NCBI GenBank assembly: GCA_021513695.1
Contig: CP084166.1
Coordinates: 32,001 to 96,000 of the forward strand
Source: Candidatus Heimdallarchaeum aukensis
GTDB taxonomy: Archaea > Asgardarchaeota > Heimdallarchaeia > Heimdallarchaeales > Heimdallarchaeaceae
Direction: 5' to 3'
DNA: 64,000 nucleotides
Under the pieces are notes generated by a model. That model was not told the DNA's origin. It saw only the letters and a list, made by a program, of their open reading frames with translations, and did not search any database. A program made the position numbers and the translations under genes. Below, one piece after another: positions 1 through 64,000 of this stretch (within the stretch, counting starts at the first letter, position 1; each line of letters begins with the position of its first letter).

Positions 1-225
1 TTCTCCCTCTCTTACTTTCTCTCGGTTCCTCTTTCACCAGTTTCTTAAGGAAAGGTTCATTAATGCTTATGAATTCTCTTGCTTTGTGGGGGTCTATGAT
101 CTGAAAGTAAGCCATACTTCCGACATAAACCCCCACATTAATAAAAATTAATTTTTGGGCATGCTTCTTAAGTTGATTAATGATCTATCTTAAAATTATT
201 CTTTTTAATTATCTAATTAATAGAA

Positions 226-240
226 AATATTAATATATAA
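226..240 (+). promoter_or_regulatory. Putative archaeal TATA box / BRE for a leaderless transcript of the 259-3147 gene
   Basis: AATATTAATATATAA is centred about 25 nt upstream of ATG 259, the spacing expected between an archaeal TATA box and a TSS at or next to the start codon. Confidence 0.3.
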
Positions 241-258
241 GGTGGAAATAAACTGAAT

Positions 259-3147
259 ATGGCTATCAAAACCAAAAAAAACTCCACAAAGAAGAATTTA
301 ATTACTGTTTTTGTAATTTTCTTGGTTTGTTTTAGTTTTATAAATTGTTTAACCTCTAACTTGTTAACTGTAGTAGCTTCAGGAAGCGGAGATTTTCCAC
401 CTCCAAGTAGTGGAGAATGGACAATATCTCAAGAAACAATAGTTAATTCTGAAGTTATTTATATTAATGATTCAGTTTCAATAGAAAGTGGAGGATCTTT
501 AGTATTAGAAAATTGTGTAATAGAAATGAATGGTAATGAAGATGACAAAGCTAATTTTATAGTTAATAATAATGGTAATCTTACAATAATTAATTCTAAA
601 ATAGAAGCTTTTTCTGATTATTCATGGTACATCGAAGCAGAAGAAGGAGCTTCACTTAAAATTACTGACTCAACCCTAATAAACTTCAAAGGAAGCCAAT
701 ATACATCAGTAATTACACTCTATAACAATTATTCTGAAATTACAAACAATAGTATCTCAAACTTCAAATATAAAGCCATTTTTGCTAGATTTACTAGTCA
801 TCATAATAATATTACAAAAAACAAAATAAGTGGAGGGCTTGTTGGTTTTGAAGTAGTCGATGGATGGTACAACGAGATAAATGATAATGAGTTTCACTTA
901 CTATCACAATTTGCGATTGCTATTAATAATGGTAGTTTTTCAAATATTCTTCGAAATAAAATATTTAATGTTTCTTCTATCGCAATCAATTTCCAAAAAT
1001 CAAAGAATGTTTTATGCAATAACAACAATATTTCTACGTCTAAAACTGCAATTGAGTGCTATTCAATCTATAATAGTAGTATCTCTAATAATATGTTCTC
1101 TAATATTCATGATTATTCAATTAGAGTATATACAGGGAATAATGTCACAATATCAAACAATTCAATTGATAATAGCGATTTAGCAAAAGGCATTATTAAT
1201 TCAGCTATTAGCCTGAGTGCGTGTAATAATTTTTCTATTAATGAAAATTCAATAATAAATACCCCAAGAACAGCTCTAGAAATTTTAAGTTCAACAAATT
1301 GTAGAATTTTTAACAATGTTTTTTCCATTAATAATTACTCTATCTTTATCTCTAGTTCTAATTATCTTGAAATTAAAAACAATTTACTATCTTATTCGAA
1401 TGATTATTCTATGTGGTTTATTAAATCAGATTTTTCATTGTTTGAAAACAACACAGTTAATTTTGGTCAATCTTGTGGAATTAGACTAAGTAGCTGTAAC
1501 AATAATTCTATATTAAGGAACATCATATTCAATAATAGTAAATATGGTATCGATATTTCTTCAAGTAATAATAATACGATACTGGAAAATGTTTTTGTTT
1601 TAAACAATAATGGTTCTATTCAAGCTTATGATAATGGATTAAATAATAGCTGGTATAGTAATTTAGAATCTGTTGGTAATTTTTGGAGTGATAATAATGG
1701 ATCATCTTTCTATTTAATAAATGGTGAATCAGGTTCTATGGATATTTTTGCGAATTATTCTGATTACGATAAAGATTTTATTCCTGATTATTATGAACTT
1801 GAAGTTGGTTTAGATATAACAATAAATGATGCTAATGACGACTTAGATGGGGATGGTTTGTCAAACTTCGAAGAATTTACTCTGGGTACTTTTCCTAATG
1901 ATCCTGATAGCGATGATGATGGTTTAATTGATTCAGTAGAAGTAGACTTGAAAACTGATCCTATGTCTAATGATACAGACAATGACAACCTTATTGATGG
2001 GTTAGAAATTCAATATGGATGTGACCCCTTTTCAAATGATACAGACATGGATGGACTAGATGACTGGTCAGAGATATTCTACTACTTCACTGACCCTTTA
2101 GATTATGACACTGATGGTGATGGGTTATCTGACTCTGATGAAGTTTATGCATATAATACAGACCCATTGGACGCTGACACTGATGATGATGGCTTAAATG
2201 ATGTAACTGAAGTACTAGGTTATGGTACTGATCCCAATGATGCAGATACAGATGGAGATGGATTAACAGATTACGAAGAAGTGATTGAATATTTTACTGA
2301 TCCTACGGATGTTGATACTGATGGTGATGGTTTAACAGATTATGAAGAGGTAAAATATTATGGAACAAATCCTAGGAAAGCTGACACTGATGGTGATGGA
2401 ATTTCTGACAATGATGAATTAATTCAAGGAAAAGATCCATTAGTCAATGAGAAACAAAGAAATGTAAGGATAATAATTATTGTATTTTCTGCTTTAGGTT
2501 CTGGTATACTGTTTATAGGATTAACTGTGCTGTTGATACTATTCCTGATAGAAAAGAACAAAAATAAAGAACAAGCATTGTTATCCCTTTTCAAGAAAAA
2601 AATTAGAGAACTAGAAAAGAAAATTAATATTATTGAAACAACAAAAATTGAAGAACTTATGTCTAAGACAGAAGAAAGAGCGAAAATTGATACTTTTTTC
2701 AATGAATTCCTTGAGGTTTTAGTGGACTTCGCAACATATTTTCTGGAAAATGAGGAATTAATTGAGAATAAAAAATGGTTACAAGCCAAAAAGAAGCTAA
2801 ATGAAGAATTAGATAAAGTGAGAGATTGGATTAATAAAAATCTACGTGCTCTAAAGGAATATGATATTTATGACAAACTAGTAAACCAGATAGATGGATT
2901 AGAAAATAAAGAAGAAATTAAGATTAGCAAGTTAGAAGCTTATAAGGAGATTGAAATTGCAAAAGGTATTTTGAGAGAATTCAAAAAAGTAGTAGAGAAA
3001 ACTTCTCCTTTTATCAACAAATTTTCCTATTCTACTTTAACTAAATATTGGGAGATTACAACTGAACTTATATTTGCTAATATGACACAGCTAGAAAAAA
3101 TTGAGGAAAAAATAAAAGATCTACTGGAAAGAGAGAAAACTCTATAA
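259..3147 (+). CDS. Type I membrane surface protein: N-terminal signal/anchor, parallel beta-helix (PbH1/NosD-like) repeats, thrombospondin type-3-like Ca-binding repeats, single TM helix, ~210-aa K/E-rich cytoplasmic coiled-coil tail
   Basis: 962-aa ORF. N-terminal hydrophobic stretch [18 protein letters not shown]. About 500 aa of N/I/S-rich beta-helix repeats ([51 protein letters not shown]). DxDxDGLxDxxE repeats ([36 protein letters not shown]). [29 protein letters not shown] followed by KNKNK and a heptad-like E/K-rich C-terminus. Confidence 0.85.
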
Positions 3148-3149
3148 TC

Positions 3150-3497: not shown

Positions 3498-6400
3498 TTA
3501 TTTTCTAGATCTATTTGTTTTTATTGCAAGAATGGTCAAGCCTAAGAGTCCTAGAACGAAATAGAGGAAACTGAATGGATTTTTGGTTGTAGTCTCTTCT
3601 GGATGACTGTTTGAGTCAATAGGGTTAAAACCATTAGACGCTTCGTATCCATCAGTCCAACCATCTCCATCAGTGTCATTATTATGAGGATCAGTATTCC
3701 AATAGAATTCATCTCTATTAGTTAAACCATCTTCATCAGGATCTTCATTAGCATCATCTACTAAAGGATCTAAGTTGTTGTCTACTTCCCAACCATCAGG
3801 CATACCATCATCGTCGGTATCACTGTCAGTAGGGTCGGTGTTATTTGTATATTCTCCTAGATTTGATAAACCATCACTGTCTTTATCATCAGACCCATCA
3901 TCTGTTAATGGGTTTAATTCATATTTTAGTTCCCATCCATCGTCCATTCCATCTCCATCAGTATCTGCGTCAGTGCTTTGAGTGCCTAAAACTACATCTT
4001 CAAGGATATCATCTAAACCGTCTCCATCTATATCAGTTCCACTTATTGGATAAAGATCGACTGAAGAAGCCGTTCCTTGAATATTGGTATAAGTTCCTGT
4101 TGTTCCATTGTAGTCTGACCAATAGTTACCTACTTTTATTTCATCATTATACCATAGATTATTTGACCCATCATCTATAGCTAAAGTAATTTGGTCAAAG
4201 AATAAATAAGAAGCTGAAACGAAATAATTTTGATAGATTAGAGCATTAGAAATCGTAGAAGATAGTGAGATTAAGCAATAAATTTGCCTAATTTCTCCAT
4301 TAATATCAATTATGTCGAATATTTTATTGTACGTAATAATTGCTCCATCAATATCTCCATCTAAACGAATCCCTGCATTAGATACCGTGTTTTCTATGAT
4401 ATTTATAACATTTCTAGTAATCTCGAGATTTTCCCATTGTCCACGAATGTATATTCCTATAGTTCCTCCAGAATTTATTTCATTGTTGTCTATAACAAAA
4501 TTATTTCCTCCATCATTGGCGAAATAAATACCACTGTAAGATGATCCTAGATTTGTTGTTATTTGGTTATATGAGATAGTTATATTGTTGAAGATATTAC
4601 CACTAGCAACATAAATTCCTTTATTACAGTTGCTTATTTGGCTATTAGTTATTATTACATTGTCTACTTTTCTAGCATAATCAGCATAAAGTTCAATTCC
4701 TGAATCTACATTGGAGATGATGGTGTTATTTATTATTAAGCCGTCTGCGGCATAGACATCAATAGCGATTTCTTCATAATTTGATATTATTACATTTTTT
4801 ATTGTAAGATTTTCACTATCAAAAATATATATTGCTTTTGTTGATGTACCATCATGTAAATTTAGGTCTTCAAGAAAAACATTTTTTGAAGTATCAATAC
4901 TTATACTTCCATGTTCAATCTCTGCATTTACAAAAGTAATATTGGTAACTTCGTAAAAGTTTGAGGTACCTGAAAGGGTGTTACTTGTTATTTCGAAATT
5001 ACTAGAATAAGAAATGTAAAACGAGGTATTGGATGACAATATAGCATTATTTGTTATTTCTGTGAACTTTTCTGGCAGATTTGCAATAGTAAAAGCTCTA
5101 TCTACATTTTCAATATAATTGTTGGTAATGTATGTATTTCCTTCCAAAGCGTTACCATAAGAGGAAGTTATTGTGAAAACTTTTTCTGAATCTGAAATAT
5201 CGTTATTATCAAAAGTGACATTACCCACGTAAATTAGATCAAAAGCGGTATTATTAGCGTCTACTATCTCATTATTCACTATTGTAATATTATCATTTAT
5301 TACATAATTTGTGTTATATTTTTTATTTATATCAAGACCGTAAGATACACCTTCTATTATGTTATCTTTAAAAGTCAGAGTAATATTTGCAGTAGTAGAA
5401 TAATCTAAACACATTCCTTTATTTGCTTCATTAATAGTATTTCCTGTCACATTTAATGATTTCGTGTCATATACTATAATTCCATTATAGGCGTTGATAA
5501 ACTCGTTAGAAATTATAATTATTTCTTCATCAGCATATTGATCAATAGGATTCATAATATAAATCGCATTATCGTAAATATTTTCGAAACCGTTACCGGA
5601 AACAGTAATACTTTTTGAATCTTTAATTAAAATTCCTAAATCTGTATTTGATATAGAAAGTGATTTAATGTTAATATTAGTACAATCAATTAGAAATATC
5701 TGACCATAAATGTTAGTGTCAATATTTTTCGTATCGTTGCTAACAAAATAACCTACTTCTTTATTATTTACTTTGTTTCCCTTTACTATTATTGTATTAG
5801 CTTTTTCTTTAAGTGGTGCTAAAAACATCCCATCATTTACTAAAGTATTATTAACAATCTCAATAGTATCTGTTGTTTCCTTAGCAAGATAGATTCCATA
5901 TCCTTTATTTGACTCTATTGAATTATTTGCTATTATTTCATCATTTGATCCACCATTAATTAACAATCCAATATCATCGTTATTATTTATTGAATTATTT
6001 GCAATAGTAATAAAGTCTCCAGTAATATCTATACCTTTATTGTTGAATGAACAGTTATTTCCAGTTATAATTACGTTGTTTGAACCAGTTGAATAAATCC
6101 CTGCGTTACTATTAGATGAACAGGTATTATTTGCAATTATTGCGTTATTAACACCGTAAATGTTTATTCCATTATTACTTCCTGTTATGGTATTATTTAT
6201 TATCTTCTGACTATTAGTCATATAAACATTAATTCCATCTTCATTTCCACTTACAGTGTTTGATTCAATAGTTGCGATTCCATCAGCCACAGATACAATA
6301 TATATTCCCTTTCTAGATGCTTCAATAGAACAATTGACTATCTTAAAGTAAGCTGTTACGCTTAAACTATGAATATAAATTCCATAGTCTGATGATGTCT

Positions 6401-6614
6401 GTATTTTTAAGTTACTGATTATGTAAGGATCGTCTACTGTACCTGCTCCATCAACAACACCATTAGCTGAAGTAAAATCACTATCTGAAGCAATTACTAT
6501 TGGGTCATGTGTTGTGTATATTTTCAGTTTAGACTGTACGTTATTTAAACTTACAATCAATCCACTGCTAATTACAAGCATTATTAAAAACAATGATTTA
6601 TAGTTTTTCATCAA
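3498..6614 (-). CDS. Secreted/anchored surface protein: signal peptide, long parallel beta-helix repeat region, TSP3-like Ca-binding repeats, C-terminal TM + basic tail (PGF/PEF-CTERM-like archaeal sorting anchor)
   Basis: 1038-aa ORF. N-terminus MMKNYKSLFLIMLVISSGLIVSLNNVQS. Beta-helix repeats such as NNTITGSNNGINIYG and NNTCSSNSNAGIYSTGSNNVIITGNNCSFNNKGIDITG. C-terminal DxDxDG repeats (DTDGDGMDDGWE, DSDTDDDGMPDGWE, DTDGDGWTDGYE). Ends NPFSFLYFVLGLLGLTILAIKTNRSRK. Convergent with the 259-3147 gene. Confidence 0.85.
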   Translation of the reverse strand: MMKNYKSLFLIMLVISSGLIVSLNNVQSKLKIYTTHDPIVIASDSDFTSANGVVDGAGTVDDPYIISNLKIQTSSDYGIYIHSLSVTAYFKIVNCSIEASRKGIYIVSVADGIATIESNTVSGNEDGINVYMTNSQKIINNTITGSNNGINIYGVNNAIIANNTCSSNSNAGIYSTGSNNVIITGNNCSFNNKGIDITGDFITIANNSINNNDDIGLLINGGSNDEIIANNSIESNKGYGIYLAKETTDTIEIVNNTLVNDGMFLAPLKEKANTIIVKGNKVNNKEVGYFVSNDTKNIDTNIYGQIFLIDCTNINIKSLSISNTDLGILIKDSKSITVSGNGFENIYDNAIYIMNPIDQYADEEIIIISNEFINAYNGIIVYDTKSLNVTGNTINEANKGMCLDYSTTANITLTFKDNIIEGVSYGLDINKKYNTNYVINDNITIVNNEIVDANNTAFDLIYVGNVTFDNNDISDSEKVFTITSSYGNALEGNTYITNNYIENVDRAFTIANLPEKFTEITNNAILSSNTSFYISYSSNFEITSNTLSGTSNFYEVTNITFVNAEIEHGSISIDTSKNVFLEDLNLHDGTSTKAIYIFDSENLTIKNVIISNYEEIAIDVYAADGLIINNTIISNVDSGIELYADYARKVDNVIITNSQISNCNKGIYVASGNIFNNITISYNQITTNLGSSYSGIYFANDGGNNFVIDNNEINSGGTIGIYIRGQWENLEITRNVINIIENTVSNAGIRLDGDIDGAIITYNKIFDIIDINGEIRQIYCLISLSSTISNALIYQNYFVSASYLFFDQITLAIDDGSNNLWYNDEIKVGNYWSDYNGTTGTYTNIQGTASSVDLYPISGTDIDGDGLDDILEDVVLGTQSTDADTDGDGMDDGWELKYELNPLTDDGSDDKDSDGLSNLGEYTNNTDPTDSDTDDDGMPDGWEVDNNLDPLVDDANEDPDEDGLTNRDEFYWNTDPHNNDTDGDGWTDGYEASNGFNPIDSNSHPEETTTKNPFSFLYFVLGLLGLTILAIKTNRSRK

Positions 6615-9233: not shown

Positions 9234-10496
9234 TTATTTATATTCACGAATAACTGGTAGAGTAACTACGCTTTCTATCCATGGTAATTTAGCTATAGAT
9301 TTCCTTATCAAGTTGTAAGCTTTTCCAATATTTCTTAATCTTATTGAAATTATTAAATCATAAACTCCTGAAGTATAAGCGACAGATTCTATACCCCTTA
9401 TTTGAGATAATTTTTCTAAATCGATTTTCTCTCCAATTTTTATTTTAGCAAAGATCAATCCTCTAGTTTCAGACATAGATAAGGTAACTACACCTATTAA
9501 AATAAGGATCGAACCTGATATTTTAAGGATTATACCTACTATATCATTTCCTCCTGAACTGAATATTGCTGGAAACCAAATTGCAAAAATAGCTGCCAAA
9601 GGATAAGTGGAGATAACGCTTATACTGTTTAAAGCTCTTACAATAGACATCTTCCCCATCGTAAGTGCTCTAGTGTAAGCAATTACACCAAGATAAACCA
9701 ATAACATTGAGCAAATTACAGGAACTAAAGAGGGTCTCCAATTTTCTTTTATCTCATTAAAACCTACTCTGTAGATACTAGGAAGCGATGCTATTACTTG
9801 CCCTGCTGTCATAATAAAAAGTGTCCATATTCTTAGACTTAGCGTATCTATCTTTCTTCCTTTATCATTTTTTGTTACTAAAGCTTTCTTTTGAAAAACA
9901 GTATATAATGCCGAAAATAAAGCAAATGGACCAAAGATAAGTAAAATACCTATAGCATCTAATTTTCCACCAGAAATTGTAGAAATCATTACTCCTACAG
10001 CTATCATTGTAATTGATTGGATTTCAATTGCAACAGGTTTTTCTCTTTCTGAAATAGAATCAGCAATAAGCAAGTAAACGAGAACAAATTGGCTAAATGG
10101 CATTATTAGAGATGCATCATACTTTTCTAAAAGAACAAAATAGAGTATAGTGTTTCCTGTAGCAAAAAGACCAGCAAGAAGGGTATATAGTAAAACTTTG
10201 CCTTTAGGAAACATTATTCCTTGAAAATTAGGGTCAAAATAGTAACCCAGAGTTTTCTTAAATTCTTTATCTTTGTTTGGTAGAGGAATAGAAAGAATAA
10301 GTATAAGAATTATTGACACTATTAAACCTACAACCATCTCATATGCTCCAAAAAGATAAGGATCAGTAATGAAACTGTTGCCAATTGCATCTAGTACTAC
10401 CCACAGGCTAGTGATTAAACCAGATCCCAAGGCTAGTAGATAAAACGTACTTTTTCTTCTAATTTTACTAAATTCTCTATGGGCTGCAATTGACAT
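9234..10496 (-). CDS. DMT/EamA-like 10-TM membrane protein fused to a C-terminal Lrp/AsnC-type RAM (amino-acid-sensing) domain
   Basis: 420-aa ORF. About 340 aa of hydrophobic TM segments, then a C-terminal ~80 aa (IRGIESVAYTSGVYDLIISIRLRNIGKAYNLIRKSIAKLPWIESVVTLPVIREY) with the beta-alpha-beta-beta-alpha-beta RAM-domain pattern of Lrp/AsnC regulators. Confidence 0.7.
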   Translation of the reverse strand: MSIAAHREFSKIRRKSTFYLLALGSGLITSLWVVLDAIGNSFITDPYLFGAYEMVVGLIVSIILILILSIPLPNKDKEFKKTLGYYFDPNFQGIMFPKGKVLLYTLLAGLFATGNTILYFVLLEKYDASLIMPFSQFVLVYLLIADSISEREKPVAIEIQSITMIAVGVMISTISGGKLDAIGILLIFGPFALFSALYTVFQKKALVTKNDKGRKIDTLSLRIWTLFIMTAGQVIASLPSIYRVGFNEIKENWRPSLVPVICSMLLVYLGVIAYTRALTMGKMSIVRALNSISVISTYPLAAIFAIWFPAIFSSGGNDIVGIILKISGSILILIGVVTLSMSETRGLIFAKIKIGEKIDLEKLSQIRGIESVAYTSGVYDLIISIRLRNIGKAYNLIRKSIAKLPWIESVVTLPVIREYK

Positions 10497-16443: not shown

Positions 16444-16483
16444 AAAATAATAAAAAATTAAATTAAAAGAAAAGGTGAAAAAG

Positions 16484-22717: not shown

Positions 22718-22720
22718 ATA

Positions 22721-23821: not shown

Positions 23822-23824
23822 GAA

Positions 23825-34618: not shown

Positions 34619-34709
34619 TTATCGTATAGTACTCTTTAGAGTTCTGGGATTGGAATTGGGGCTATTATTTCCTGGAGTAAGTAATTGAAAATTGAAAAGA
34701 AGTGTAAAA

Positions 34710-49843: not shown

Positions 49844-50818
49844 ATGAGCGTAAAAATAACCTCAGAATATATAGAGCTGCTGAATAAAGCAGTTGCAAGA
49901 GAATTACAAGTTTCTGTTCAATATTTTCTACAACACGCTAAAATTGAAAAAATAATGAGAAAAGTTAAAGCTGAAAATATTTTACTTGATTCCACAACTT
50001 ACGACCAGATAGGTCAGATTTTAAAGAAACTAGCAATAGAAGAAATGAAACATGCAGGATCAATCGTTGAGAGAATTTATTATTTGGGAGGCAAGGCAAC
50101 AACTAAAGCTTTTAAACCTAAAATAGGAGAAAATATGCAAGAATTTATGAAATATGGCTTTGAAGCTGAAGAAGAAGCTTTAGAATTATATCGTGAAATA
50201 ATCCGCGAGGCAGGTAAATTAGGAGATTATGATACTAAAGAACTCTTTAGGAAAATCTATAGAGAGGAAGAAGAACATCTTTATACGTTTCAAGAATATT
50301 TAACAATTAATATTAGTGAACCTGGAGAGACAGCACCAAAGTCCGAATGGAGAAAAGTTTTTGACGACGAATACTTTGCTCTATTAAACAAAGCCTTAGC
50401 TTCAGAACTGTCTGCTATTATTCAGTACATAACCCAACATGAAAAAGCGAGTGCAATCAATCTTAGGAAAAAAGAAACGCCTTTAGAAGTAATTACCAAT
50501 ACAAACAAAGCGCAAGTTATTAGTAACATGTTAAAGAAAATCTTTATGCAAGAAATGGAACATTACGAAAAGATTTCTGAAAGAATATACATGTTGGATG
50601 GAGAATGTACATTGGATCCTGATCCTTTGCCAAAAGTTGGTGAGAGCGTAGAAGATTTCTTGAAACTGGGTCATCAAGCTGAAGATGAAGCTATTGTTCT
50701 TTATCGTAAAATCATAGAAGAAGCTACTAAGAAGGGAGATATAACTACTAAGAAGATGTTTGAAGAAATATTGATGGAAGAAGAAGAACATTACTGGATG
50801 TTTGATGACTACTTGTAA
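49844..50818 (+). CDS. Tandem-duplicated ferritin-like (bacterioferritin/rubrerythrin-fold) diiron protein
   Basis: 324-aa ORF with two ~150-aa halves. Each carries ferroxidase-type E...QY/E..H ligand motifs (ELQVSVQYFLQH + EEMKHAGSIVERIYYLGG; ELSAIIQYITQH + QEMEHYEKISERIYMLDG) and the conserved E-x-x-H second pair (EEEHLYTFQEYL; EEEHYWMFDDYL). Confidence 0.7.
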   Translation: MSVKITSEYIELLNKAVARELQVSVQYFLQHAKIEKIMRKVKAENILLDSTTYDQIGQILKKLAIEEMKHAGSIVERIYYLGGKATTKAFKPKIGENMQEFMKYGFEAEEEALELYREIIREAGKLGDYDTKELFRKIYREEEEHLYTFQEYLTINISEPGETAPKSEWRKVFDDEYFALLNKALASELSAIIQYITQHEKASAINLRKKETPLEVITNTNKAQVISNMLKKIFMQEMEHYEKISERIYMLDGECTLDPDPLPKVGESVEDFLKLGHQAEDEAIVLYRKIIEEATKKGDITTKKMFEEILMEEEEHYWMFDDYL

Positions 50819-50888: not shown

Positions 50889-51254
50889 ATGAGTAATATA
50901 AAGAAACTCACTTTTTCTGTAAATCAAAGTAGAAGAGTGATTCGTGCAGCAGAAAACAAGAAAATTGAACCTAAAGAATTGCTTAAAGGTTATGAGCTTA
51001 TGGTAAATACCCTCTTTAAGCATTGGAAAGAAGAATATGCTGAAACTATGGAAATTGACTTTCAAACATTTTTTTATGAAATAATGAAATATGCTGAAGT
51101 TAAATATAGATTAGAAAAGACCAAGTCTGATCTAAAAAAAATAAAAGAAATGTCAGAGTTGTTAAACGAAGCCATTGAAGAATATAAAGAAGATTATACA
51201 ATTTTGAAGGCTATAGAAGATAGTTTGAGAAATATGGGTGTTGAGTGGGTTTAA
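50889..51254 (+). CDS. Hypothetical protein
   Basis: 121-aa K/E-rich ORF with no recognisable domain. Directly abuts the next ORF (stop/start TAAATG). Confidence 0.4.
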   Translation: MSNIKKLTFSVNQSRRVIRAAENKKIEPKELLKGYELMVNTLFKHWKEEYAETMEIDFQTFFYEIMKYAEVKYRLEKTKSDLKKIKEMSELLNEAIEEYKEDYTILKAIEDSLRNMGVEWV

Positions 51255-51704
51255 ATGAAATTGAATATTACCCAATTTAAGATTAAATTCAAGGATAAAA
51301 TAGAAATTGAAAATGAAGAGAAATTTGCAGATAATATAATCTATTATTATCCGTTTTTTCAATCTTTAGATAAAAATGAGTTAGAGAAGTCTCTTCAATC
51401 AATAAGAGAAGAAAAAAAAGTCTTGGAGAAAAAATTCAAAAAAATAAAAGAAGAGTTCTCAGATATACTGGGAGAGATAGCAAAAATACGTTTCACAGCT
51501 AATGAATTATATAATCAAAATAGGGTTATAGCTCTGACTACAGGGTTATTAAGACATAAGCTGATAGATTTACATAATAATAATGTTGAACTTCCTTTTG
51601 ATTATGAGGAAACACTTAAGTTTGTAGAACATTTTATTTATAGATATTTAACTAAAAAAGAAGATAAAAGACTTGTTGCCCAGCTACCTTTTAAAGAGAT
51701 TTGA
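51255..51704 (+). CDS. Hypothetical protein
   Basis: 149-aa ORF with no recognisable domain. Upstream of the serine recombinase gene. Confidence 0.4.
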   Translation: MKLNITQFKIKFKDKIEIENEEKFADNIIYYYPFFQSLDKNELEKSLQSIREEKKVLEKKFKKIKEEFSDILGEIAKIRFTANELYNQNRVIALTTGLLRHKLIDLHNNNVELPFDYEETLKFVEHFIYRYLTKKEDKRLVAQLPFKEI

Positions 51705-51783: not shown

Positions 51784-52506
51784 ATGATTCGTTGTGTTAT
51801 TTATGCTCGTACATCTACAGCTGATCAAACTAGTGGGTTAGAAACACAGATTGAAGATGTAACGGCTAAGATATATCAAGCTGGAGATAGAGCAATAGTA
51901 AGAATAATTAAAGATCAAGATATTGCAGGCGATAGTGACCCTGAATATAGACCCGGATTTAAAGAAATCCTAGAAATGGCAAAGAATAATCAATTTGATG
52001 AGTTATGGTCTCAATCAAGAGACAGATTGTCAAGAGACGTTGATATTTTGGGTTATATTCGCATTCTTCTAAAAAAGAATAATGTTTCTATAGTTTGTTT
52101 AGATGATGAAGAAAACAAGGTTATTTCTAGAGTTAAAGACCTATTTGGTGAAATGGAACTTCAAAAATATAGAGAAAAAAGATACAAAGGAATGATGAGA
52201 AGACTAAAGGAACAAAAAGTAATGTCAAGACCTCCTTTTGGTTATAAAGTGAATGAGGAAGGAAAATTAGTTGTAGATGAGGAAAAAGCAGCAATAATTA
52301 GAAGGCTCTTTTCTGAATTTGACAACCCTTTGGCTTCTTTGAAAAGTTTAAGTTTGAAATATAATTTATCTGTCTCTACACTGCGAAATATTCGTTCAAA
52401 CCCAATTTATCGAACTGGTGAAGTACGTTGGGCAGGAAAAATTGCTTATTATGTTGATCCTATTGTCCCTGAAAATAAAGATCAAAAACTTAAGTTAGAC
52501 GACTAA
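51784..52506 (+). CDS. Serine recombinase (resolvase catalytic domain + partial 'recombinase' domain; truncated large-serine-recombinase-like)
   Basis: ATG 51784 (MIRCVIYARTSTADQ = Y.R.ST..Q catalytic-serine motif). RDRLSRD (SRLSR-like). Downstream recombinase-domain pattern RPPFGYKVNEEGKLVVDEEKAAIIRRLF ... STLRNIRSNPIYRTGEV. The protein ends about 60 aa later, with no zinc-ribbon or coiled-coil region. TATA-like TTTTATATTA about 35 nt upstream. Confidence 0.7.
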   Translation: MIRCVIYARTSTADQTSGLETQIEDVTAKIYQAGDRAIVRIIKDQDIAGDSDPEYRPGFKEILEMAKNNQFDELWSQSRDRLSRDVDILGYIRILLKKNNVSIVCLDDEENKVISRVKDLFGEMELQKYREKRYKGMMRRLKEQKVMSRPPFGYKVNEEGKLVVDEEKAAIIRRLFSEFDNPLASLKSLSLKYNLSVSTLRNIRSNPIYRTGEVRWAGKIAYYVDPIVPENKDQKLKLDD

Positions 52507-52520: not shown

Positions 52521-53429
52521 TTAACTATACACCTTTTTTATGATATTTTCAGAAAGAGTATACTTTTCTCCTATAGGTTTTTTGTTAAGTCCTTTCTCAC
52601 TTATGTATCCACTTATTAGCTCTCGAGGGATTTTCTCAAAATGAACATCAACTACTTCCAAATTGGGATCATACTCTGTATTCCACAAATCAGTGCTTTC
52701 TGAAGGCATTATTTTGCCTATTACATCTATTTCTTTGAGCATAACCTTTTTCGCTGTTGCACCCACAATGAAAGGAATACTGTATTCTTCAGCTAACTTT
52801 GCCAAAATGTAACTCCCCGCCTTGTTAACTACTTCTCCTTGAGGAAAGATACTGTCTGCTCCAATAATTGCTAAAGTAGGTTTATATTTGTCAAACATAA
52901 CCTTCATTGCTGCATCAAAACTATAACGAACTTTATGTCCTATTTTCAGTAGTTCCTCTGCTAATGTTTTGCCTTCTTTCTTTGGACTAGATTCAAATAT
53001 AATAACTTCTAGTGGCTGTTTATAGAGTTCTTTTCCTACTCTTAACGATTCAAGTACAGTGCTTGCTCTGGAAAAAGTAATTATTGTCTTCTCTTCGAAG
53101 ATATGTTTAGAAATGTTTTGAGCGAGTATTTTCTTACTATTGTTTAATTTTTCAAGTTGTATAGACGGTATTTTCTCTAATTCTACTCCATTTTCCAGAA
53201 GTGACAAAAATTCTAGAACCAAATTTCGGAGGATAATCATATTTTTATTAATGTTAATGATCGGTAATAACTGATCAATTTTCTCATTTGTTGAATAATT
53301 ATCCCAAAGAGTAAAGTTTTTTTCAATTTCTTCTTTTAATATGAGTAAAACTTTTTCTGTTATTTCCATTGCTCCACTTGTTTTATCATCTCTTAAACTT
53401 TCAATCTCTTTGAAAAAGAATCCACTCAT
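52521..53429 (-). CDS. eIF-2B alpha/beta/delta-like family protein (ribose-1,5-bisphosphate isomerase / MtnA-like isomerase)
   Basis: 302-aa ORF with C-terminal family signature IIGADSIFPQGEVVNKAGSYILAKLAEEYSIPFIVGA (IF-2B fold: GAD.I..NG.V.NK.GT...A..A....IPF.V.A). Confidence 0.7.
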   Translation of the reverse strand: MSGFFFKEIESLRDDKTSGAMEITEKVLLILKEEIEKNFTLWDNYSTNEKIDQLLPIININKNMIILRNLVLEFLSLLENGVELEKIPSIQLEKLNNSKKILAQNISKHIFEEKTIITFSRASTVLESLRVGKELYKQPLEVIIFESSPKKEGKTLAEELLKIGHKVRYSFDAAMKVMFDKYKPTLAIIGADSIFPQGEVVNKAGSYILAKLAEEYSIPFIVGATAKKVMLKEIDVIGKIMPSESTDLWNTEYDPNLEVVDVHFEKIPRELISGYISEKGLNKKPIGEKYTLSENIIKKVYS

Positions 53430-54327: not shown

Positions 54328-54480
54328 ATAATAATCAGGTTAAAAGAAACTCAACCCCTTAAATTGAAAATTAAATATAATTACAAATTCCATTTCTTTT
54401 TTTTAAATTTGAAAATCAATATTTAGTTACCGCTTTACTCTTTCAGAAAAAGTAAAAAAGCCCATCGAAATTTGAATTTA

Positions 54481-55401
54481 ATGGTTTCTATAACTTTCAT
54501 ACTTGCAATAATTTTTGGACTGATCTCTTATGCAGCTTATAACTTAGGTTTTGCATTGGAAAAAGAAGTTGTTGATAAAATAGATGAAAAAGATAAGAAA
54601 CCATTTTCAAAATACTTACTGCGTTTATTGAAAGAAAAAAGATGGCTAGCTGGCCTTTTCTTGACTTTCTTAAGTGTTCCATTTTATTATATTGCTTTGA
54701 TTTGGGTTCCTTTAGTAGCTATCTCCCCCTTATCTGGTTTTGGACTGGTTGTGTTAGCTATATATGCTCATGTTAAAGTTAAAGAAAAAATTAGTGTAGT
54801 TGAATTAAGTGCAATAGTTTCTGCTATAATAGGTATAAGCTTATCTTCTATTATTACAAGTAAGTATTCGATTACAATTACCCACGATGAATGGACAAAT
54901 TCTGTAATATCGCTTAAAGGTTTATTTTTAGGAATAAGCGTTTTAATATCTTTTCTGCTTTGCGCTCTTGTTTCGATATTTTCTAAAAAAAATAACTTAA
55001 AATTAATTTCTTTAGCACTGATTTCTGGATTATCTGCTGGAATTCAAGCAATAATTGTTAAAGGCATAGGTTCTTTAATTTATGATTATGGATTGACTAA
55101 TGTTTTTCTGTTATTTGTTTATTTAGCTCTATTAATTATTACTGCAGCTATTTCTACTTTAGTTCTTCAAATAGCTTTTAAATATGGAAAGGTTTCCACT
55201 TCTATGGCAATTTATAATGGACTAGTAACTATTTTACCAATCTGTTTTGCAGGTATTTTGTTAAACGAATGGCGACCAATTCCTTTGCTTTCTAAATTTA
55301 TTCTGGCTATTGCAATTTCTTTGACTGTCTTTGCTATCGTCTTATTAAGTTTAAGCCACTTAAAACACAATAATAGTGAAGAAAAAACCAAAAAAAAATG
55401 A
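54481..55401 (+). CDS. NIPA-like (DUF803) DMT-superfamily membrane protein, putative Mg2+ transporter
   Basis: ATG 54481 (track start TTG 54472). LLKEKRWLAGLF...VPLVAISPLSGFGLVVLAIYAHVKVKEKIS aligns with the NIPA core ([12 protein letters not shown]...[30 protein letters not shown]). Later LVTILPICFAGILLNEWRP matches NIPA ...AILFKEW. 9 TM segments. Confidence 0.55.
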   Translation: MVSITFILAIIFGLISYAAYNLGFALEKEVVDKIDEKDKKPFSKYLLRLLKEKRWLAGLFLTFLSVPFYYIALIWVPLVAISPLSGFGLVVLAIYAHVKVKEKISVVELSAIVSAIIGISLSSIITSKYSITITHDEWTNSVISLKGLFLGISVLISFLLCALVSIFSKKNNLKLISLALISGLSAGIQAIIVKGIGSLIYDYGLTNVFLLFVYLALLIITAAISTLVLQIAFKYGKVSTSMAIYNGLVTILPICFAGILLNEWRPIPLLSKFILAIAISLTVFAIVLLSLSHLKHNNSEEKTKKK

Positions 55402-58769: not shown

Positions 58770-58770
58770 T

Positions 58771-61494
58771 ATGTTTAGGAAGAAGAGAGGAGTTTCTCCT
58801 GTAATTGCAGTTGTTCTGATACTTGGTCTTACCTTAGCTGCAACTGCAATTGTTTTTCTAGTTGTACTTCCAATGGTAAATCAAAGAAATGCTCCTGAGT
58901 TATACATTGATGAGACTTCAGCACCTTTGTTTATGGATTACGATAATGATGGAAAATGTGACTATATAACTGTCCAAGTTGGAAATATCGGTGGGAGTGC
59001 GTTTAATGTTACTAATATAACGATCGTAGCTTCCAAAGATAGTTCGTCCAACTTCTACACTTGGGAGTTAATGGATAATGTAAATGGGACAATAGGTGTA
59101 AATGATCGTGTTCTATTAAAGATGAGGGCTGCTGTAGATGATACTGATGAAATAGATGATGGTTCAAGTCTAATTTTAACACTAATAAATGACCAATATA
59201 TTGTAGGTCTAGAACTTGGGACAATTACTGTTGAACAAGGAGAACCACTATCTATTGAATTTACTGATTCTTCAGGAGATCCTGTTGTTGGTTCTAATAT
59301 TTATTTCTACTATTCCACAGGAGAATTTGCTTACACAGGGGAACCAACATCTGTTAGTGGTGTTTCAAACACTTATCTATTTCCAGGGACTTACTATGCA
59401 AAAGCTCAATCTGGAATGCAATTCTACACCACAGATGTTTTTATTCATCCAGGAACACCCCAATTACATTTAGAGATGTCTGGAGGAACTTTAACTGTTA
59501 AAGTTAAATCAGGTACAACACCTTTAAGTGGTGTAAGAACTTATTTGTATGATACCTATAGCCATTATTTGAATAAATACTCTGATACTAATGTTGATGG
59601 ACTAGCTACTTATTCTCTTGATGATGGAGTGTATAAGATCAGAGCAGATGTTTCTGGAATAGTCTATTATTCAGAAAATATAAACTTCCCAAATACAACT
59701 TATATAGAAATTGACACAGGAGGAGGTACTGTTTATGCTCACGTAATTGATGGAGGAAATAATCCAATAGTCAACACTCGTGTCTATCTTTTCACCTCAA
59801 GTGGAAGCTACACTGGTAAATACGGTAACACCAATGCTACAGGGTATGCTGAATTTGCTGCAGTTTCAGGAGGAACTAATTATAAGTTTAGAGTAGATTA
59901 CTTGGCTTATAGAATCTGGAGTCAAACCTTTGGAGCTTCAGATGGGGCAGTTATTGATGTTAATGTAGGAGGAGGAACAATATATGTCAATGTAACTGAT
60001 GGTGACGGCAATCCAATAAAGAACACTCGTACATATCTCTTTACTTCAAGCGGAAGTTATACTGGTAAATACTCGAATACAAATACAAGTGGAATAGCCA
60101 CTTACAGCTCTATAGCTGCTGGAGATTACAAGATTAGAATTGACTATCTTGCTCAAAGATTCTGGAGCCCAGTTTTCACTGCTTCAAATGGATTAATAGT
60201 TAATGCATCTATAGGAGGAGGAACACTTTATGGAAATATTACTGTGGCTGGAAATGCTTTAGTTAACACTCGTGTTTATCTTTTCACTTCAAGTGGAAGT
60301 TATACCGGTAAATATGGAAATACAAATGCTTCTGGAATAGTAACATTTGTTGGAATAGGCACTTCTAACTATAAGTTAAGGGTAGATTACCAAGCAGATC
60401 GTCATTGGTCAGATGTTTTCTATTTCAATGAAACAATGGTTTATCACTTTGAACTAGGTGGAGGAACAGTTTATGCCAATGTCACTGCTGGAGGGGTACC
60501 AGTTGTCAATACTAGAGTCTATGTATTCACTGATAGCGGAAGTTATACAGGAACTTATGCAAACACTAATGCTTCAGGAATAGCAACATTCAACACATTA
60601 AGCAGTGGAGACTACAAATTCAGAGTTGACTACCTCGCAAAAAGATTCTGGAGTGATGTATTCACTGCCAGTGATGGTTTAGTTGTAGATGTTGATTTAG
60701 GTGGAGGAACAATATATGTCCATTTGACTAATACCTATGGTGTAGATATTGCTAATGTACGTCTCTATCTCTTCACTTCAAGTGGAAGCTACACAGGTAA
60801 GTATACAAACACAAATGCTACGGGTTGGGGAGTTTTTGCAGGAATAGGAGAATCAGACTATAAAGTACGTGCAGACTATCTAGCAAAAAGATACTGGTCA
60901 AACGTATTTACTGCAACCGACGGATTAAATGTAGATTTCAATATAGGTGGAGGAATAGTTTGGTTACATGTGTTTGACGGAAGTGGGACAAATATAAGCG
61001 GACCAAGAGCTTATCTCTTTACTGAGAGCGGAAGTTATACTGGAATCTACAGAAACCTGGATGCTAATGGATATCTGAACTTTACTGGAATAGGTGATGG
61101 TAACTTCAAATGGAGAGTCGACTATCTTGCAAAAAGATTCTGGTCTGATGTTTTCTCTGCGACAAACGGTACAACTTTAGAATTCAACATCGGTGGAGGA
61201 ACAATATACGTTCATCTAACAGTTAATGGTGCTGATGTTAATAACGGAAGAATATACTTGTTTACAGATACTGGTAGTTATACTGGAAAATATGCAAATA
61301 CAAACTCTACAGGTTGGGCAGTGTTCTATGGAATTGGAGCAGGAGATTATAAGTTGAGATATGATTATGATGGAACACGTTATTGGAAGAATTTCTCCGC
61401 AGATGCAGATTTACAGGTAGGGTTTGCTATTGTAACCACAATGACCCTTTCTGTATTAACAGTTCAACCTTCTAAGTCAAAAGAAAATTATTAA
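58771..61494 (+). CDS. Large (907 aa) protein with archaeal class III (type IV pilin-like) signal peptide and 8 tandem ~83-aa beta-sandwich (carboxypeptidase-regulatory-domain-like) repeats
   Basis: N-terminus MFRKKRGVSPVIAVVLILGLTLAATAIVFLVVLPMV matches the archaeal pilin/class III signal pattern ([KR]-G-[VA]-S-P-V-I-A + hydrophobic). Eight repeats such as GGGTIYVNVTDGDGNPIKNTRTYLFTSSGSYTGKYSNTNTSGIATYSSIAAGDYKIRIDYLAQRFWSPVFTASNGLIVNASI. Confidence 0.85.
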   Translation: MFRKKRGVSPVIAVVLILGLTLAATAIVFLVVLPMVNQRNAPELYIDETSAPLFMDYDNDGKCDYITVQVGNIGGSAFNVTNITIVASKDSSSNFYTWELMDNVNGTIGVNDRVLLKMRAAVDDTDEIDDGSSLILTLINDQYIVGLELGTITVEQGEPLSIEFTDSSGDPVVGSNIYFYYSTGEFAYTGEPTSVSGVSNTYLFPGTYYAKAQSGMQFYTTDVFIHPGTPQLHLEMSGGTLTVKVKSGTTPLSGVRTYLYDTYSHYLNKYSDTNVDGLATYSLDDGVYKIRADVSGIVYYSENINFPNTTYIEIDTGGGTVYAHVIDGGNNPIVNTRVYLFTSSGSYTGKYGNTNATGYAEFAAVSGGTNYKFRVDYLAYRIWSQTFGASDGAVIDVNVGGGTIYVNVTDGDGNPIKNTRTYLFTSSGSYTGKYSNTNTSGIATYSSIAAGDYKIRIDYLAQRFWSPVFTASNGLIVNASIGGGTLYGNITVAGNALVNTRVYLFTSSGSYTGKYGNTNASGIVTFVGIGTSNYKLRVDYQADRHWSDVFYFNETMVYHFELGGGTVYANVTAGGVPVVNTRVYVFTDSGSYTGTYANTNASGIATFNTLSSGDYKFRVDYLAKRFWSDVFTASDGLVVDVDLGGGTIYVHLTNTYGVDIANVRLYLFTSSGSYTGKYTNTNATGWGVFAGIGESDYKVRADYLAKRYWSNVFTATDGLNVDFNIGGGIVWLHVFDGSGTNISGPRAYLFTESGSYTGIYRNLDANGYLNFTGIGDGNFKWRVDYLAKRFWSDVFSATNGTTLEFNIGGGTIYVHLTVNGADVNNGRIYLFTDTGSYTGKYANTNSTGWAVFYGIGAGDYKLRYDYDGTRYWKNFSADADLQVGFAIVTTMTLSVLTVQPSKSKENY
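59482..61440 (+). repeat. Eight near-tandem coding repeats, unit 243-249 nt, encoding the ~83-aa modules of the pilin-signal protein
   Basis: Recurrent unit starts (ggaggagga/ggtggagga...ac..t.tatg..) at 59482, 59719, 59968, 60214, 60457, 60700, 60946 and 61192. Spacings are 237/249/246/243/243/246/246 nt. Confidence 0.85.
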
Positions 61495-61570: not shown

Positions 61571-62638
61571 TTAATTTTTGTTTTTGATTTCGTTTACTCT
61601 TCTATAGGGGTAAATAGGTATTTCTTCTAAACAGTTAGGACATTTTAAATCTACTGTCATATTGGTATAAGTTACTGACATTAGATCTCTCTTTACTAAA
61701 AGTTCAGAGCAAATAGGACAAAAAGTATTCTGTAGAGGATGACCAGGAACATTTCCGAGATAAACATACTTCAATCCTTCATTTTTTGCAATAGAATGAA
61801 CTTTTTGAAGAGTATCTATTGGAGTTGCAGGTATTTCAAACAAATAATGTGGAAAATATCTAATAAAATGAACTGGTGTATAAATTGAAAGATTTTGTTT
61901 TATTTTTTCTACAAATTCTATAATTTGTTCTTCTTCATCGTTAAATTCTGGAATAACTAGATATACAATCTCTATATGGACGCCAGATTGATAGGCTGAT
62001 TTAACATTTTTCCAGATTTTTTCAAATTTAACATCAAGATTATGTTCTATTTTTTCACTAATTCCCTTAAAAGAGACCGTCATTCCGTTCATTCCAGCAT
62101 CTATGAGTAAATCTAAAGCATAAGGTGACATATATCCATTTGTCACATAGTGTTTGTAATAGGTAGGATCAATATTCTTGAAAACATCAACAGTATATTC
62201 TAATGAGAGCGTAGGCTCATTGAAAGAAAAAGAAATTCCTTGAATACTAGGGTTTGTTCTAATAGTTTCAATGACTCTCTCAATAGAAAGAAGACTAGAA
62301 TTAAGAAAATCTTGCGGAGGAGGACGTTTTGAAATTTCAAAATTCTGGCAAAATTCACAAGGAAAATTACATCCCCAAGAACCAAGAGTAAGAGCTGTGG
62401 ACGTTGGATAGTAATGATAAGCAGGTTTTTTTTCTATTGGATTTAAGTTATAGCTTGAAATATCTGAATATTCAATACTATATAGCTTTCCTTCATAATT
62501 TGCTCTTACCTTGCAGTAACCTAGTTCTCCTTTTTCTATAATGCAAAATCTGTTACAAGTTAGACACTGTACTTTAGAATCATCGAGTTTTTTGTATAAG
62601 TAAGCTTCTTTAATTCTTGGGTCAGTCATAGAGTTCAT
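61571..62638 (-). CDS. Radical SAM enzyme, AmmeMemoRadiSam-system type (pyruvate-formate-lyase-activase-like)
   Basis: 355-aa ORF. N-terminal Cys cluster CLTCNRFCIIEKGELGYC. Canonical Cx3Cx2C in GSWGCNFPCEFCQNFEIS. Overall TIGR04337-like layout. Confidence 0.7.
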   Translation of the reverse strand: MNSMTDPRIKEAYLYKKLDDSKVQCLTCNRFCIIEKGELGYCKVRANYEGKLYSIEYSDISSYNLNPIEKKPAYHYYPTSTALTLGSWGCNFPCEFCQNFEISKRPPPQDFLNSSLLSIERVIETIRTNPSIQGISFSFNEPTLSLEYTVDVFKNIDPTYYKHYVTNGYMSPYALDLLIDAGMNGMTVSFKGISEKIEHNLDVKFEKIWKNVKSAYQSGVHIEIVYLVIPEFNDEEEQIIEFVEKIKQNLSIYTPVHFIRYFPHYLFEIPATPIDTLQKVHSIAKNEGLKYVYLGNVPGHPLQNTFCPICSELLVKRDLMSVTYTNMTVDLKCPNCLEEIPIYPYRRVNEIKNKN

Positions 62639-62786
62639 TCAAATAAACAGTAAAGAAAAATGATATTTAAATCAATTGTTCAACTTTGTTTTCTAAAAAA
62701 TCCATTAACTTTTTCTTTATAGAAAGAAGTAAAAACAGCAAGCTCTATTCTGAGTAACAAAAGAAAAAAAGTGTTAATTAGTAAGA

Positions 62787-63404
62787 TTATCTGGCTTTTC
62801 TAATCATTCCCCATACTTGAACATTTGAATTAGGAATCTTTTCAGAAATAGCAACCTCGAAACCAAAATGCTCGTAGAGTGAAATGTTTTCCTCGTTTTC
62901 TGTTTCTAAATAACAAATCTCCTTTTGGGAATCAAAGAAATCTAATGCAGGTCTTAGCAACTTTGAAGCGAATCCTTTGTTCTGGTGCGGAGGATCTACA
63001 GCAATTGAATTTAAATACCAGTGTGGACTATCTATTGCTCTTTCATGTATTTCATCAATAAACTTTTGCATTTTCATTGGTTTTCTCCAATTCATAATAA
63101 AAGGGATGATATATCCTTTACTCTTTAATAAAGCCAAAATGTTGTCTTTCTCTTTTTTTGGAGGAGTTAGAACCATTAAACCTTCAATTTTTTTGGATGT
63201 AGCCACAATATAACCATAATTCATCGCGTAATTTAAGCTGACGTAAAACATGTAGTACATTTTTTTTCTTTTTTTAATGTTAGGAAATAGGTACTTAAAT
63301 AAAGGATCTTCAAAAAAAGCCCTTGTTAGAACGGTACAAGCTTTTTTAATATCTTTTTTTTTGACCGTGTATAGAGAGTCAAAAAATAATGAATTATTTT
63401 TCAT
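62787..63404 (-). CDS. GNAT-family N-acetyltransferase
   Basis: 205-aa ORF with acetyl-CoA motif A-like IAVDPPHQNKGFASKLLRPAL and C-terminal YEHFGFEV. Confidence 0.65.
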   Translation of the reverse strand: MKNNSLFFDSLYTVKKKDIKKACTVLTRAFFEDPLFKYLFPNIKKRKKMYYMFYVSLNYAMNYGYIVATSKKIEGLMVLTPPKKEKDNILALLKSKGYIIPFIMNWRKPMKMQKFIDEIHERAIDSPHWYLNSIAVDPPHQNKGFASKLLRPALDFFDSQKEICYLETENEENISLYEHFGFEVAISEKIPNSNVQVWGMIRKAR

Positions 63405-63488
63405 TAATTTAATTTCTCTTCTTAAAATAATAAACTGTTCCTTGAAATGAAATTATTTAAATCAAAAATAAAAAAAAGAAAAGTGTTA

Positions 63489-64000
63489 TTAGTTCAGATA
63501 GAAGTAAGCACCTGTGTTTCCGTCAAATTGTTGGGGTGTGTCTCCACCGCTGTAAGGATAAGCGTTGAGGGCATAGTTGAATATTGTTTCTAATGCTGTA
63601 GAAGAAGATCCTCCGTAGTAGTTAATCCAGGAGTATTCCAAGAAGTAATATGTCCATGCTCCATTTTGATGTGTAGAATCATCATATCCATAACCGTTTT
63701 CTGTACAAGTTGTTGTTAAGTAAACGTTGCTTTTATTGGGCATGTTCATTAAGTTATCTCCAAAACCGCCACTGAAACAATGATCCAAGAAAACGAATAT
63801 TTTCTCAGCTACTGCATCATCTAGTATTACAGCTAGTTCGGTATCATAAAGGCTACCATCTTCTCCGTTTTCTCCAGAGTTGCAGTCCCACATGCATAAG
63901 TAAGAGCTTCCAGAACCATCTCCAGAACCATGTCCTGAGCTTATGTAAGCAATAACATCATCTGCATCAGCGGTGCCAACTAGCCAGTTTAGAGCTTGTT
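63489..64000 (-). CDS. Clan CD (caspase/gingipain-like) cysteine peptidase domain protein, 5' end beyond window (partial)
   Basis: The minus-strand frame stays open to the window edge (...VGTADADDVIAYISSGHGSGDGSGSSYLCMWDCNSGE...). His-Gly dyad context (ISSGHGS) and catalytic Cys context (VFLDHCFSGGF) match the caspase-like fold order His...Cys. Confidence 0.55.
   Translation of the reverse strand, partial: QALNWLVGTADADDVIAYISSGHGSGDGSGSSYLCMWDCNSGENGEDGSLYDTELAVILDDAVAEKIFVFLDHCFSGGFGDNLMNMPNKSNVYLTTTCTENGYGYDDSTHQNGAWTYYFLEYSWINYYGGSSSTALETIFNYALNAYPYSGGDTPQQFDGNTGAYFYLN

Follow-up and report, generated by a model that had tools for sequence, protein, structure and literature searches.

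Lineage and source of the window

The 64-kb stretch of DNA analysed here (64,000 nucleotides (nt), referred to as the window) combines archaeal with eukaryote-like genes, and the question it raises is from which archaeal lineage, and from which kind of chromosomal region, it derives. An initial annotation, read by eye from the sequence, had assigned it to a "Lokiarchaeia-like Asgard" archaeon. The Asgard part of this assignment was upheld, whereas the Lokiarchaeia part was not: the proteins of the window matched, exactly and collinearly, those of a genome whose NCBI lineage lies in the Heimdallarchaeia. We regard it as nearly certain that Candidatus Heimdallarchaeum aukensis PM71, or the same population, is the source of the window, as a chromosomal piece of about 64 kb.

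Forty-four non-overlapping open reading frames (ORFs) were taken as genes and each was scanned against Pfam. ORF starts were chosen mechanically, leading to length offsets relative to GenBank (e.g. 329 versus 321 amino acids (aa)). Among 28 ORF translations that were looked up, 23 agreed in every residue with GenBank entries of Ca. H. aukensis, which has a chromosome of 3,081,793 bp (UJG40887, 40888, 40891, 40893, 40894, 40898, 40900, 40906, 40910, 40911, 40916-40918, 40920-40924 and 40927-40930, plus NadA). The accession numbers ascended with the window coordinates from 259 to 62638, UJG40887 being found at 259 and UJG40930 at 61571, and proteins of 2,669, 2,067, 1,037, 962, 907 and 835 aa were among the exact matches. 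Three further ORFs, i.e. two small GTPases and a major facilitator superfamily transporter, fell, at an identity threshold of 90%, into one cluster with a Ca. H. aukensis entry that is annotated as shorter. The remaining two had no match, probably as a result of the choice of start. Locus tags K9W45_00280 to K9W45_00370 were located inside the window, the span of which corresponds roughly to K9W45_001xx to K9W45_0038x. Proteins and their order were the same as in PM71 and no difference was detected.

Window positions 21900-42931 (21,032 nt) were 100% identical to the Logan contig SRR15988954_468, and showed 97.9-99.95% identity to contigs of four Joint Genome Institute (JGI) metagenomes and of one more Logan run. 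These contigs from related samples (JGI 3300033141 and 3300033148-50; Logan SRR15988958) carry the same locus and indicate strain-level microdiversity in the Ca. H. aukensis population. The window could, on this account, derive from a conspecific strain or another assembly of that population and not from the PM71 record itself. Such an origin appears improbable, as all six large proteins sized above are identical to PM71 entries, and the variant contigs differ by 0.05-2%, which is enough to alter proteins of this length.

According to NCBI taxonomy, the source genome belongs to the Promethearchaeati (Asgard), phylum Heimdallarchaeota, class Heimdallarchaeia, order Heimdallarchaeales, family Heimdallarchaeaceae. 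It is a closed genome from an enrichment of Auka hydrothermal vent sediment and was placed by 76 concatenated markers (Wu et al. 2022, Nat Microbiol, PMC8813620); its phylogenetic position is something we infer from this literature. The genome has previously been mined for eukaryotic signature proteins.

Collinearity over the 21-kb stretch extended to the sister species Ca. H. endolithica PR6 (CP084167.1), where nucleotide identity was 85.8%. This value, below the species boundary of about 95%, separates the two as species and agrees with the published average nucleotide identity of 88% between them (Wu et al. 2022, PMC8813620). Protein identities ranged from 83 to 95% (NadA 91%, an M42 peptidase 95%, two syntenic giant genes 92-95%). 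A serine recombinase, the position of a double ferritin, a type IV pilin-like gene and an EamA-RAM fusion, all treated below, were likewise common to both species. Ca. H. endolithica differed by a 37-nt indel in the intergenic region between nadA and an NAD-kinase-like gene and, judged by accession numbering, by about three more genes between the giant gene and the pilin.

NadA (quinolinate synthase) was compared with GTDB, as had been proposed in the initial annotation. Among the best 80 loci in GTDB species representatives, the top one was that of Ca. H. endolithica PR6 with 91% amino-acid identity. Beyond the genus, these loci comprised metagenome-assembled genomes (MAGs) of Heimdallarchaeota/Hodarchaeota at 50-54% and one Micrarchaeota MAG at 53%, followed by Candidate Phyla Radiation and other bacteria. 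No Lokiarchaeia were present among the 80 loci, and the named relatives of two further proteins of the window, an Arf-like GTPase and a NAD-kinase-like protein with a winged helix-turn-helix (NadK-wHTH), included none either. Each of these three genes was closest to Heimdallarchaeia at the level of class. The Hodarchaeal ArfR1, as the structure nearest to the G domain of the GTPase, and the presence of a double ferritin of an Asgard/TACK family also count in favour of the lineage. NadA by itself was rejected as a lineage marker because its matches are mixed past the genus; it speaks for "not Lokiarchaeia" without giving a clean phylogeny.

Published Lokiarchaeia genomes have a guanine-plus-cytosine (GC) content similar to the approximately 31% of the window, and this was counted in favour of an origin from a Lokiarchaeia-like archaeon. 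Lokiarchaeia such as Prometheoarchaeum syntrophicum MK-D1 resemble the source of the window in being Asgard archaea of low GC content with many small GTPases and archaeal pilins. Low GC content does not, however, separate Lokiarchaeia from Heimdallarchaeia, and small GTPases and archaeal pilins are common to all Asgard classes. Lokiarchaeia are another class and were not among the closest relatives of the three genes, whereas the window proteins are exact to a genome of the Heimdallarchaeaceae, so that we give a Lokiarchaeia-like origin next to no probability.

Some points weigh against the assignment to Ca. H. aukensis. Scans of the whole 64-kb window found no rRNA, tRNA, tmRNA or any other Rfam family, and it holds no ribosomal protein gene. 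The window itself can therefore not give a phylogenetic position, and its placement depends on identity to a genome that was placed by others. Identity to PM71 at the DNA level would follow from the exact proteins together with the 100% identical Logan contig. The second-tier matches of NadA were taxonomically mixed, including Micrarchaeota, Peribacteria and many bacteria.

Bacterial-looking second-tier relatives of this kind, seen for many of the metabolic genes, would fit a non-Asgard archaeon or a bacterium with horizontally acquired GTPase and surface genes, or a chimeric sequence, as would the fact that the Pfam model matching the thrombospondin type 3 (TSP3) repeats is named "Bacterial TSP3 repeat". 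We consider this extremely improbable: from the ORF at 259 to that at 61571, the exact collinear matches all belong to one closed genome, the segment is syntenic in the sister species and a break in composition is absent. Best matches in Euryarchaeota, DPANN or bacteria, named in the initial annotation as the result that would speak against it, were not what the window returned overall.

Reading the sequence by eye had thus given the right superphylum and the wrong class, which is of value for calibration. As a discovery, the window is of small importance, the genome being published, closed and taxonomically placed.

Diagnostic cues and small GTPases

The window has a GC content of 31.6% and a coding density of 92%. 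GC at third codon positions was 21% and the stop codons were TAA (29), TAG (10) and TGA (5), in line with the A/T-richness and A/T-ending codons described initially. T-tract terminators had likewise been noted: a run of at least five T was present within 60 nt downstream of 30 of the 44 genes. Such runs occurred in 12% of coding-sense windows of 60 nt, in 24% of antisense windows and in 14 of 44 upstream regions; the enrichment of oligo-T after genes is real. Genes without a downstream T-run were mostly operon-internal.

The gene features on which the initial annotation had based its assignment were found as follows (Pfam families with E-values):

13262-14251, minus strand: Arf-family small GTPase with a C-terminal domain of about 146 aa (Arf, PF00025; GenBank start 14227, 321 aa)
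49114-49791, plus strand: divergent Ras-superfamily small GTPase (Ras, PF00071, 3.8e-11; also Roc and Arf Pfam matches)
58771-61494, plus strand: pilin-like, putative surface protein of 907 aa (class III signal at 58786-58830; Ig-like (Big_1) and CarboxypepD_reg domains; exact to UJG40929, "type IV pilin")
259-3147, plus strand: putative surface protein with right-handed beta-helix and TSP3 repeats (Beta_helix, NosD, TSP3_bac; exact to UJG40887)
3498-6614, minus strand: putative surface protein with right-handed beta-helix and TSP3 repeats (Beta_helix, NosD, TSP3_bac; exact to UJG40888)
From 34710 (ORF 34692-40913), plus strand: giant protein of 2,067 aa with TSP3 repeats (TSP3_bac, 3.7e-23; exact to UJG40917)
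ORF 40913-48922, plus strand: giant protein of 2,669 aa with FG-GAP/VCBS repeats (FG-GAP_3, 2.3e-16; exact to UJG40918)
28707-29495, plus strand: L-aspartate dehydrogenase of NadX type (Asp_DH_C, 6.8e-31; exact to UJG40911)
29976-31031, plus strand: M42 (TET-type) aminopeptidase (Peptidase_M42, 2.2e-83)
52521-53429, minus strand: divergent IF-2B/MtnA-family protein (PF01008, 1.3e-30; exact to UJG40924, "hypothetical protein")
54472-55401, plus strand: NIPA-like transporter of the DMT superfamily (Mg_trans_NIPA, PF05653)

All of these were recovered. One name, "IF-2B-like isomerase", went too far: the family assignment held, while the protein scored far below every NCBIfam equivalog cut-off (best model 93 bits, cut-off 339), so that the word isomerase exceeds the data. 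The NadX-type protein scored 203.8 bits with the NCBIfam model TIGR03855 (NAD_NadX; equivalog cut-off 206.55), and 204-224 bits with aspartate dehydrogenase models, always slightly short of the cut-off. For the M42 peptidase, the best NCBIfam model was an archaeal lysyl aminopeptidase, also under its cut-off. FG-GAP_3 reached 60.6 bits (cut-off 26.9) and the NIPA model 34.7 bits (cut-off 26.2) over profile positions 7-289 of 295. TSP3_bac was matched in three large ORFs, in agreement with the repeat families observed at the DNA level.

These features differ in diagnostic value. The archaeal pilin signal together with small GTPases of Arf and Ras type points to an Asgard archaeon, and the T-tracts are counted among the diagnostic cues. 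NadX, M42 and IF-2B-family proteins are found in bacteria and archaea alike, and the NCBIfam matches of the three proteins included models of both domains; none of these cues is specific to archaea. Prokaryotes, too, frequently have FG-GAP/VCBS repeats and DMT/NIPA-like transporters. Given this and the name of the TSP3 model, the TSP3, FG-GAP and NIPA features are no eukaryote-type signatures.

The Arf-like GTPase matched PF00025 with 99.3 bits (cut-off 22.3; 2.2e-28), its Arf-type G domain comprising the first 175 or so of 321 residues. All 27 detectable homologues were about 320 aa long and every named one was from Heimdall archaea. An AlphaFold model (AF2) based on the homologue alignment had a mean predicted local distance difference test (pLDDT) score of 84. 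In Foldseek searches, the top matches of the G domain were HodArfR1 (8ouk), Arl1 and Arf1, with template modelling (TM) scores of 0.83-0.89 on the target; the superposition on HodArfR1 had a TM score of 0.83 on the target at 29% identity. The protein lacks an N-terminal amphipathic helix with the myristoylated Gly2 of Arf, as the annotated protein has its G1 motif from residue 10 onwards. The switch II sequence is WDMGGHQ, in which a His, kept in the family consensus, takes the position of the catalytic Gln of Arf. A His in place of this Gln is also found in Sar1.

The full-length model aligned over 297-335 columns to RagA, Gtr1 and LokiRagO (8yl2), with TM scores of just 0.45-0.50, and Pfam Gtr1_RagA gave no match to the protein. 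Modelled alone, the C-terminal 146 residues had a pLDDT of 87 and a ββ-α-βββ-αα topology, i.e. that of longin domains. The isolated domain repeatedly retrieved longin (TRAPP subunits, Ykt6, Sec22b, VAMP7) and roadblock (LAMTOR, RagA C-terminal domain) folds, none of them significantly (best E 4e-3, TM 0.41-0.48), and was therefore filed as neither. Judged from these models, the domain resembles a longin or roadblock fold, and the protein would have a Rag-like two-domain architecture. Pfam searches at E up to 10 with this domain, and with the unassigned ORFs of 121, 149, 100 and 134 aa, gave noise-level matches only, and none of the ESCRT, actin, ubiquitin or roadblock models was matched. Asgard GTPases with an Arf annotation but a Rag-like structure, and with longin or roadblock domains fused to them, have been described (Tran et al. 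2024, PMC10933270), and the small GTPases of Lokiarchaeia include GTPase-roadblock and GTPase-longin fusions (PMC10933270). The Arf-like GTPase would be a new member of this known kind of Asgard protein.

The second GTPase, which clusters with UJG40919, had the motifs GTTGSGKT (G1), DPAGQ (G3) and NKSD (G4), and an insertion of about 60 aa separates G1 from G3. In the PDB, its best sequence matches were eukaryotic proteins (Ypt7/Rab7, Arl8 and Ran), none with an E-value better than 5e-7. The gene lies directly 3′ of the giant genes, and this adjacency was also observed in Ca. H. endolithica and in another MAG of the Heimdallarchaeaceae (consecutive entries MHA1868465 and MHA1868466). The spacer between giant gene and GTPase carries a 30-nt tandem repeat in 1.9 copies (48975-49031).

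Giant genes, recombinase and putative surface proteins

The arrangement of the giant genes, followed by a recombinase gene, bears on whether the segment might be mobile. The features between the second GTPase and the IF-2B-family gene were:

49844-50818, plus strand: double-ferritin-fold protein (dFTN), 324 aa (two Ferritin PF00210 stretches; K9W45_00330)
50889-51254 and 51255-51704, plus strand: a pair of small ORFs (121 and 149 aa) before the recombinase, both charged and coiled-coil-like (no family match)
51784-52506, plus strand: serine recombinase of 240 aa (Resolvase, PF00239, 2.3e-20; exact to UJG40923)

Aloposons are defined by tandem genes for proteins of 3,000-6,000 aa, a downstream tRNA as integration site and, upstream, a set of four genes of which one encodes a MinD/ParA ATPase (PMC8813620). 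Tandem giant genes at 34710-48922 in a genus known for aloposons (PMC8813620), with a serine recombinase 2.9 kb downstream, would be compatible with an element of this type. The giant proteins, at 2,067 and 2,669 aa, are nevertheless too small, a tRNA is absent throughout the window, and the gene upstream is that of the NadK-wHTH protein, the MinD/ParA ATPase set being absent. In the Ca. H. endolithica locus, moreover, the giant genes and the genes for NadA, the M42 peptidase, NadX and a histidine kinase stand in the same order. Both the recombinase and the ORF of 121 aa are represented at the syntenic site of that species by orthologues that are at least 90% identical (UJG43847, UJG43849). 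By accession number these lie between giant gene and pilin, and the dFTN orthologue bears an intervening locus tag (K9W46_01370). The aloposon reading was rejected on grounds of size, of the missing tRNA and ParA set and of the same neighbours in the sister species, and is very unlikely to be correct. Recent insertion of the recombinase was rejected as well, since Ca. H. endolithica has the orthologues at the corresponding site; the gene appears to be resident and not mobile.

The segment is core chromosome, and a mobile element is ruled against. It encodes a cluster for de novo synthesis of nicotinamide adenine dinucleotide (NAD) with nadX, nadA, nadC and the NadK-wHTH gene, as well as IscS/IscU, an ABC importer, two-component signalling proteins and transporters. 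Also encoded are several large putative surface proteins that would bind calcium and be anchored in the membrane, a surface protein resembling type IV pilins, the double ferritin and the two eukaryote-like small GTPases. The mixed archaeal and eukaryote-like look is the usual gene content of the Heimdallarchaeia lineage. No feature of the window is outside known kinds, and the genome is already published.

Both halves of dFTN matched bacterioferritins in the PDB. By its position between the GTPase and the 121-aa ORF, the protein is the orthologue of Hend-dFTN (K9W46_01370) of Ca. H. endolithica, and as a single chain of about 324 aa that holds two ferritin domains it conforms to the dFTN family, orthology being assigned by position. 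Hend-dFTN forms a dodecameric cage, as determined by cryo-electron microscopy and posted in 2026, and the family is reported to be restricted to Asgard and TACK archaea (bioRxiv 10.64898/2026.08.25.747088).

The class III pilin signal that had been named initially, RGVSPVIAVVLILGL, is encoded at 58786-58830 on the plus strand, and Pilin_N (PF07790) scored 37.3 bits (cut-off 25.2; 5.2e-9). The N-terminus of the pilin-like protein is MFRKKRGVSPVIAVVLILGLTLAATAIVFLVVLP, comprising the basic stretch, cleavage motif and hydrophobic helix of a class III signal peptide. A prepilin peptidase gene was not seen in the 64-kb window. The C-terminal half of the protein is built of a unit of about 245 nt (about 82 aa) that occurs six times in tandem, with 61-78% identity among the copies (59779-61220; DNA repeats D2 and D3).

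The two beta-helix genes are convergent, and the TSP3 repeats of their products are of the calcium-binding type. Each of the two proteins has an N-terminal hydrophobic segment. A C-terminal hydrophobic segment is present in the protein encoded at 3498-6614, while that encoded at 259-3147 has an internal one (residues 734-768). Both giant proteins have hydrophobic termini, the N-terminal one resembling a signal and the C-terminal one being a membrane anchor. With their N-terminal hydrophobic segments, mostly accompanied by a C-terminal anchor, these large proteins are read as probable surface proteins from their sequences.

NAD genes and further gene content

The aspartate dehydrogenase step, here assigned to the NadX-type protein, opens de novo NAD synthesis. 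The other genes of the cluster were:

31044-31880, minus strand: nadC, quinolinate phosphoribosyltransferase (QRPTase_C, 9.6e-60)
31900-32931, minus strand: nadA, quinolinate synthase (NadA, 4.3e-101; exact to Ca. H. aukensis, 91% to Ca. H. endolithica)
33346-34392, plus strand: NAD-kinase-like protein with C-terminal winged helix-turn-helix (NAD_kinase_C, 3.3e-22; MarR_2/HTH_24; exact to UJG40916)

The N-terminal NAD_kinase domain of the NadK-wHTH protein remained under the Pfam cut-off (24.5 versus 25.5). At the position of the catalytic GGDG motif it reads GDTG, and alignments of motifs and with PDB entries showed that GGDG is variable across the wHTH-fused family. The C-terminal NAD-binding motifs, for which NAD kinases have NE and DGxxxSTPxGSTAY, were intact (ALNEIAIF, ADGIIVSTPLGSTGYALS). 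The family is widespread among Asgard and TACK archaea: about 113 similar proteins were found in Heimdall and Thor archaea, Nitrososphaerota and Vulcanisaeta, the top 36 matches bearing only Heimdall names. In both Heimdallarchaeum species the gene is divergent to nadA-nadC; in other Heimdall/Hodarchaeota MAGs it does not adjoin nadA. Ca. H. aukensis and Ca. H. endolithica share, in the intergenic region 32932-33345, a conserved stretch of about 150 nt that precedes nadA and contains a TTTATATA element. A search of this region for a palindromic operator yielded only AT-rich inverted repeats of low information.

The NadK-wHTH protein might, as a tentative and rather doubtful proposal from domain architecture and gene order, be a candidate NAD(P)- or ATP-sensing transcription factor for nadA-nadC and not the housekeeping NAD kinase. 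If true, this would be a regulator architecture common to Asgard and TACK archaea, built on the NAD-kinase fold and analogous to bacterial NrtR/NadR. The NadK-wHTH family and the Heimdall-restricted Arf/Sar-like GTPase with its longin-like domain are of interest to specialists, both being kinds of protein that have already been described or annotated.

Two response regulators and an 835-aa sensor kinase were also found in the window. The latter is a membrane sensor (26203-28710, plus strand) with faint HAMP/HisKA matches only, its name as a histidine kinase deriving from UniRef. The sensor gene ends in a stop codon that overlaps with the nadX start (28707). A near-identical Logan contig (L004) carries the gene divided into two ORFs, of 695 and 130 aa.

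Two further groups of genes were assigned:

15232-16987, plus strand: Fe-S assembly pair, cysteine desulfurase (IscS/NifS-type) and IscU/NifU scaffold (Aminotran_5, 1.4e-48; NifU_N, 1.4e-36; NCBIfam; exact to UJG40898)
19728-25613, plus strand: ABC importer operon with solute-binding protein, fused permease, two ATPases and PhoU_div protein (SBP_bac_11, BPD_transp_1, two ABC_tran, PhoU_div; exact to UJG40906)

An enzyme of the AmmeMemoRadiSam-system radical SAM type is encoded at 61571-62638 on the minus strand (TIGR04337, 221 bits versus a cut-off of 220); its usual partners AMMECR1 and Memo are not within the window. The gene at 9234-10496 on the minus strand encodes a fusion in which an EamA/DMT transporter of about nine hydrophobic segments carries an Lrp/AsnC ligand-binding (RAM) domain at its C-terminus. 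The domain combination suggests that a small molecule bound by the RAM domain may gate the transporter, and the fusion has been kept in Ca. H. endolithica (UJG43879).

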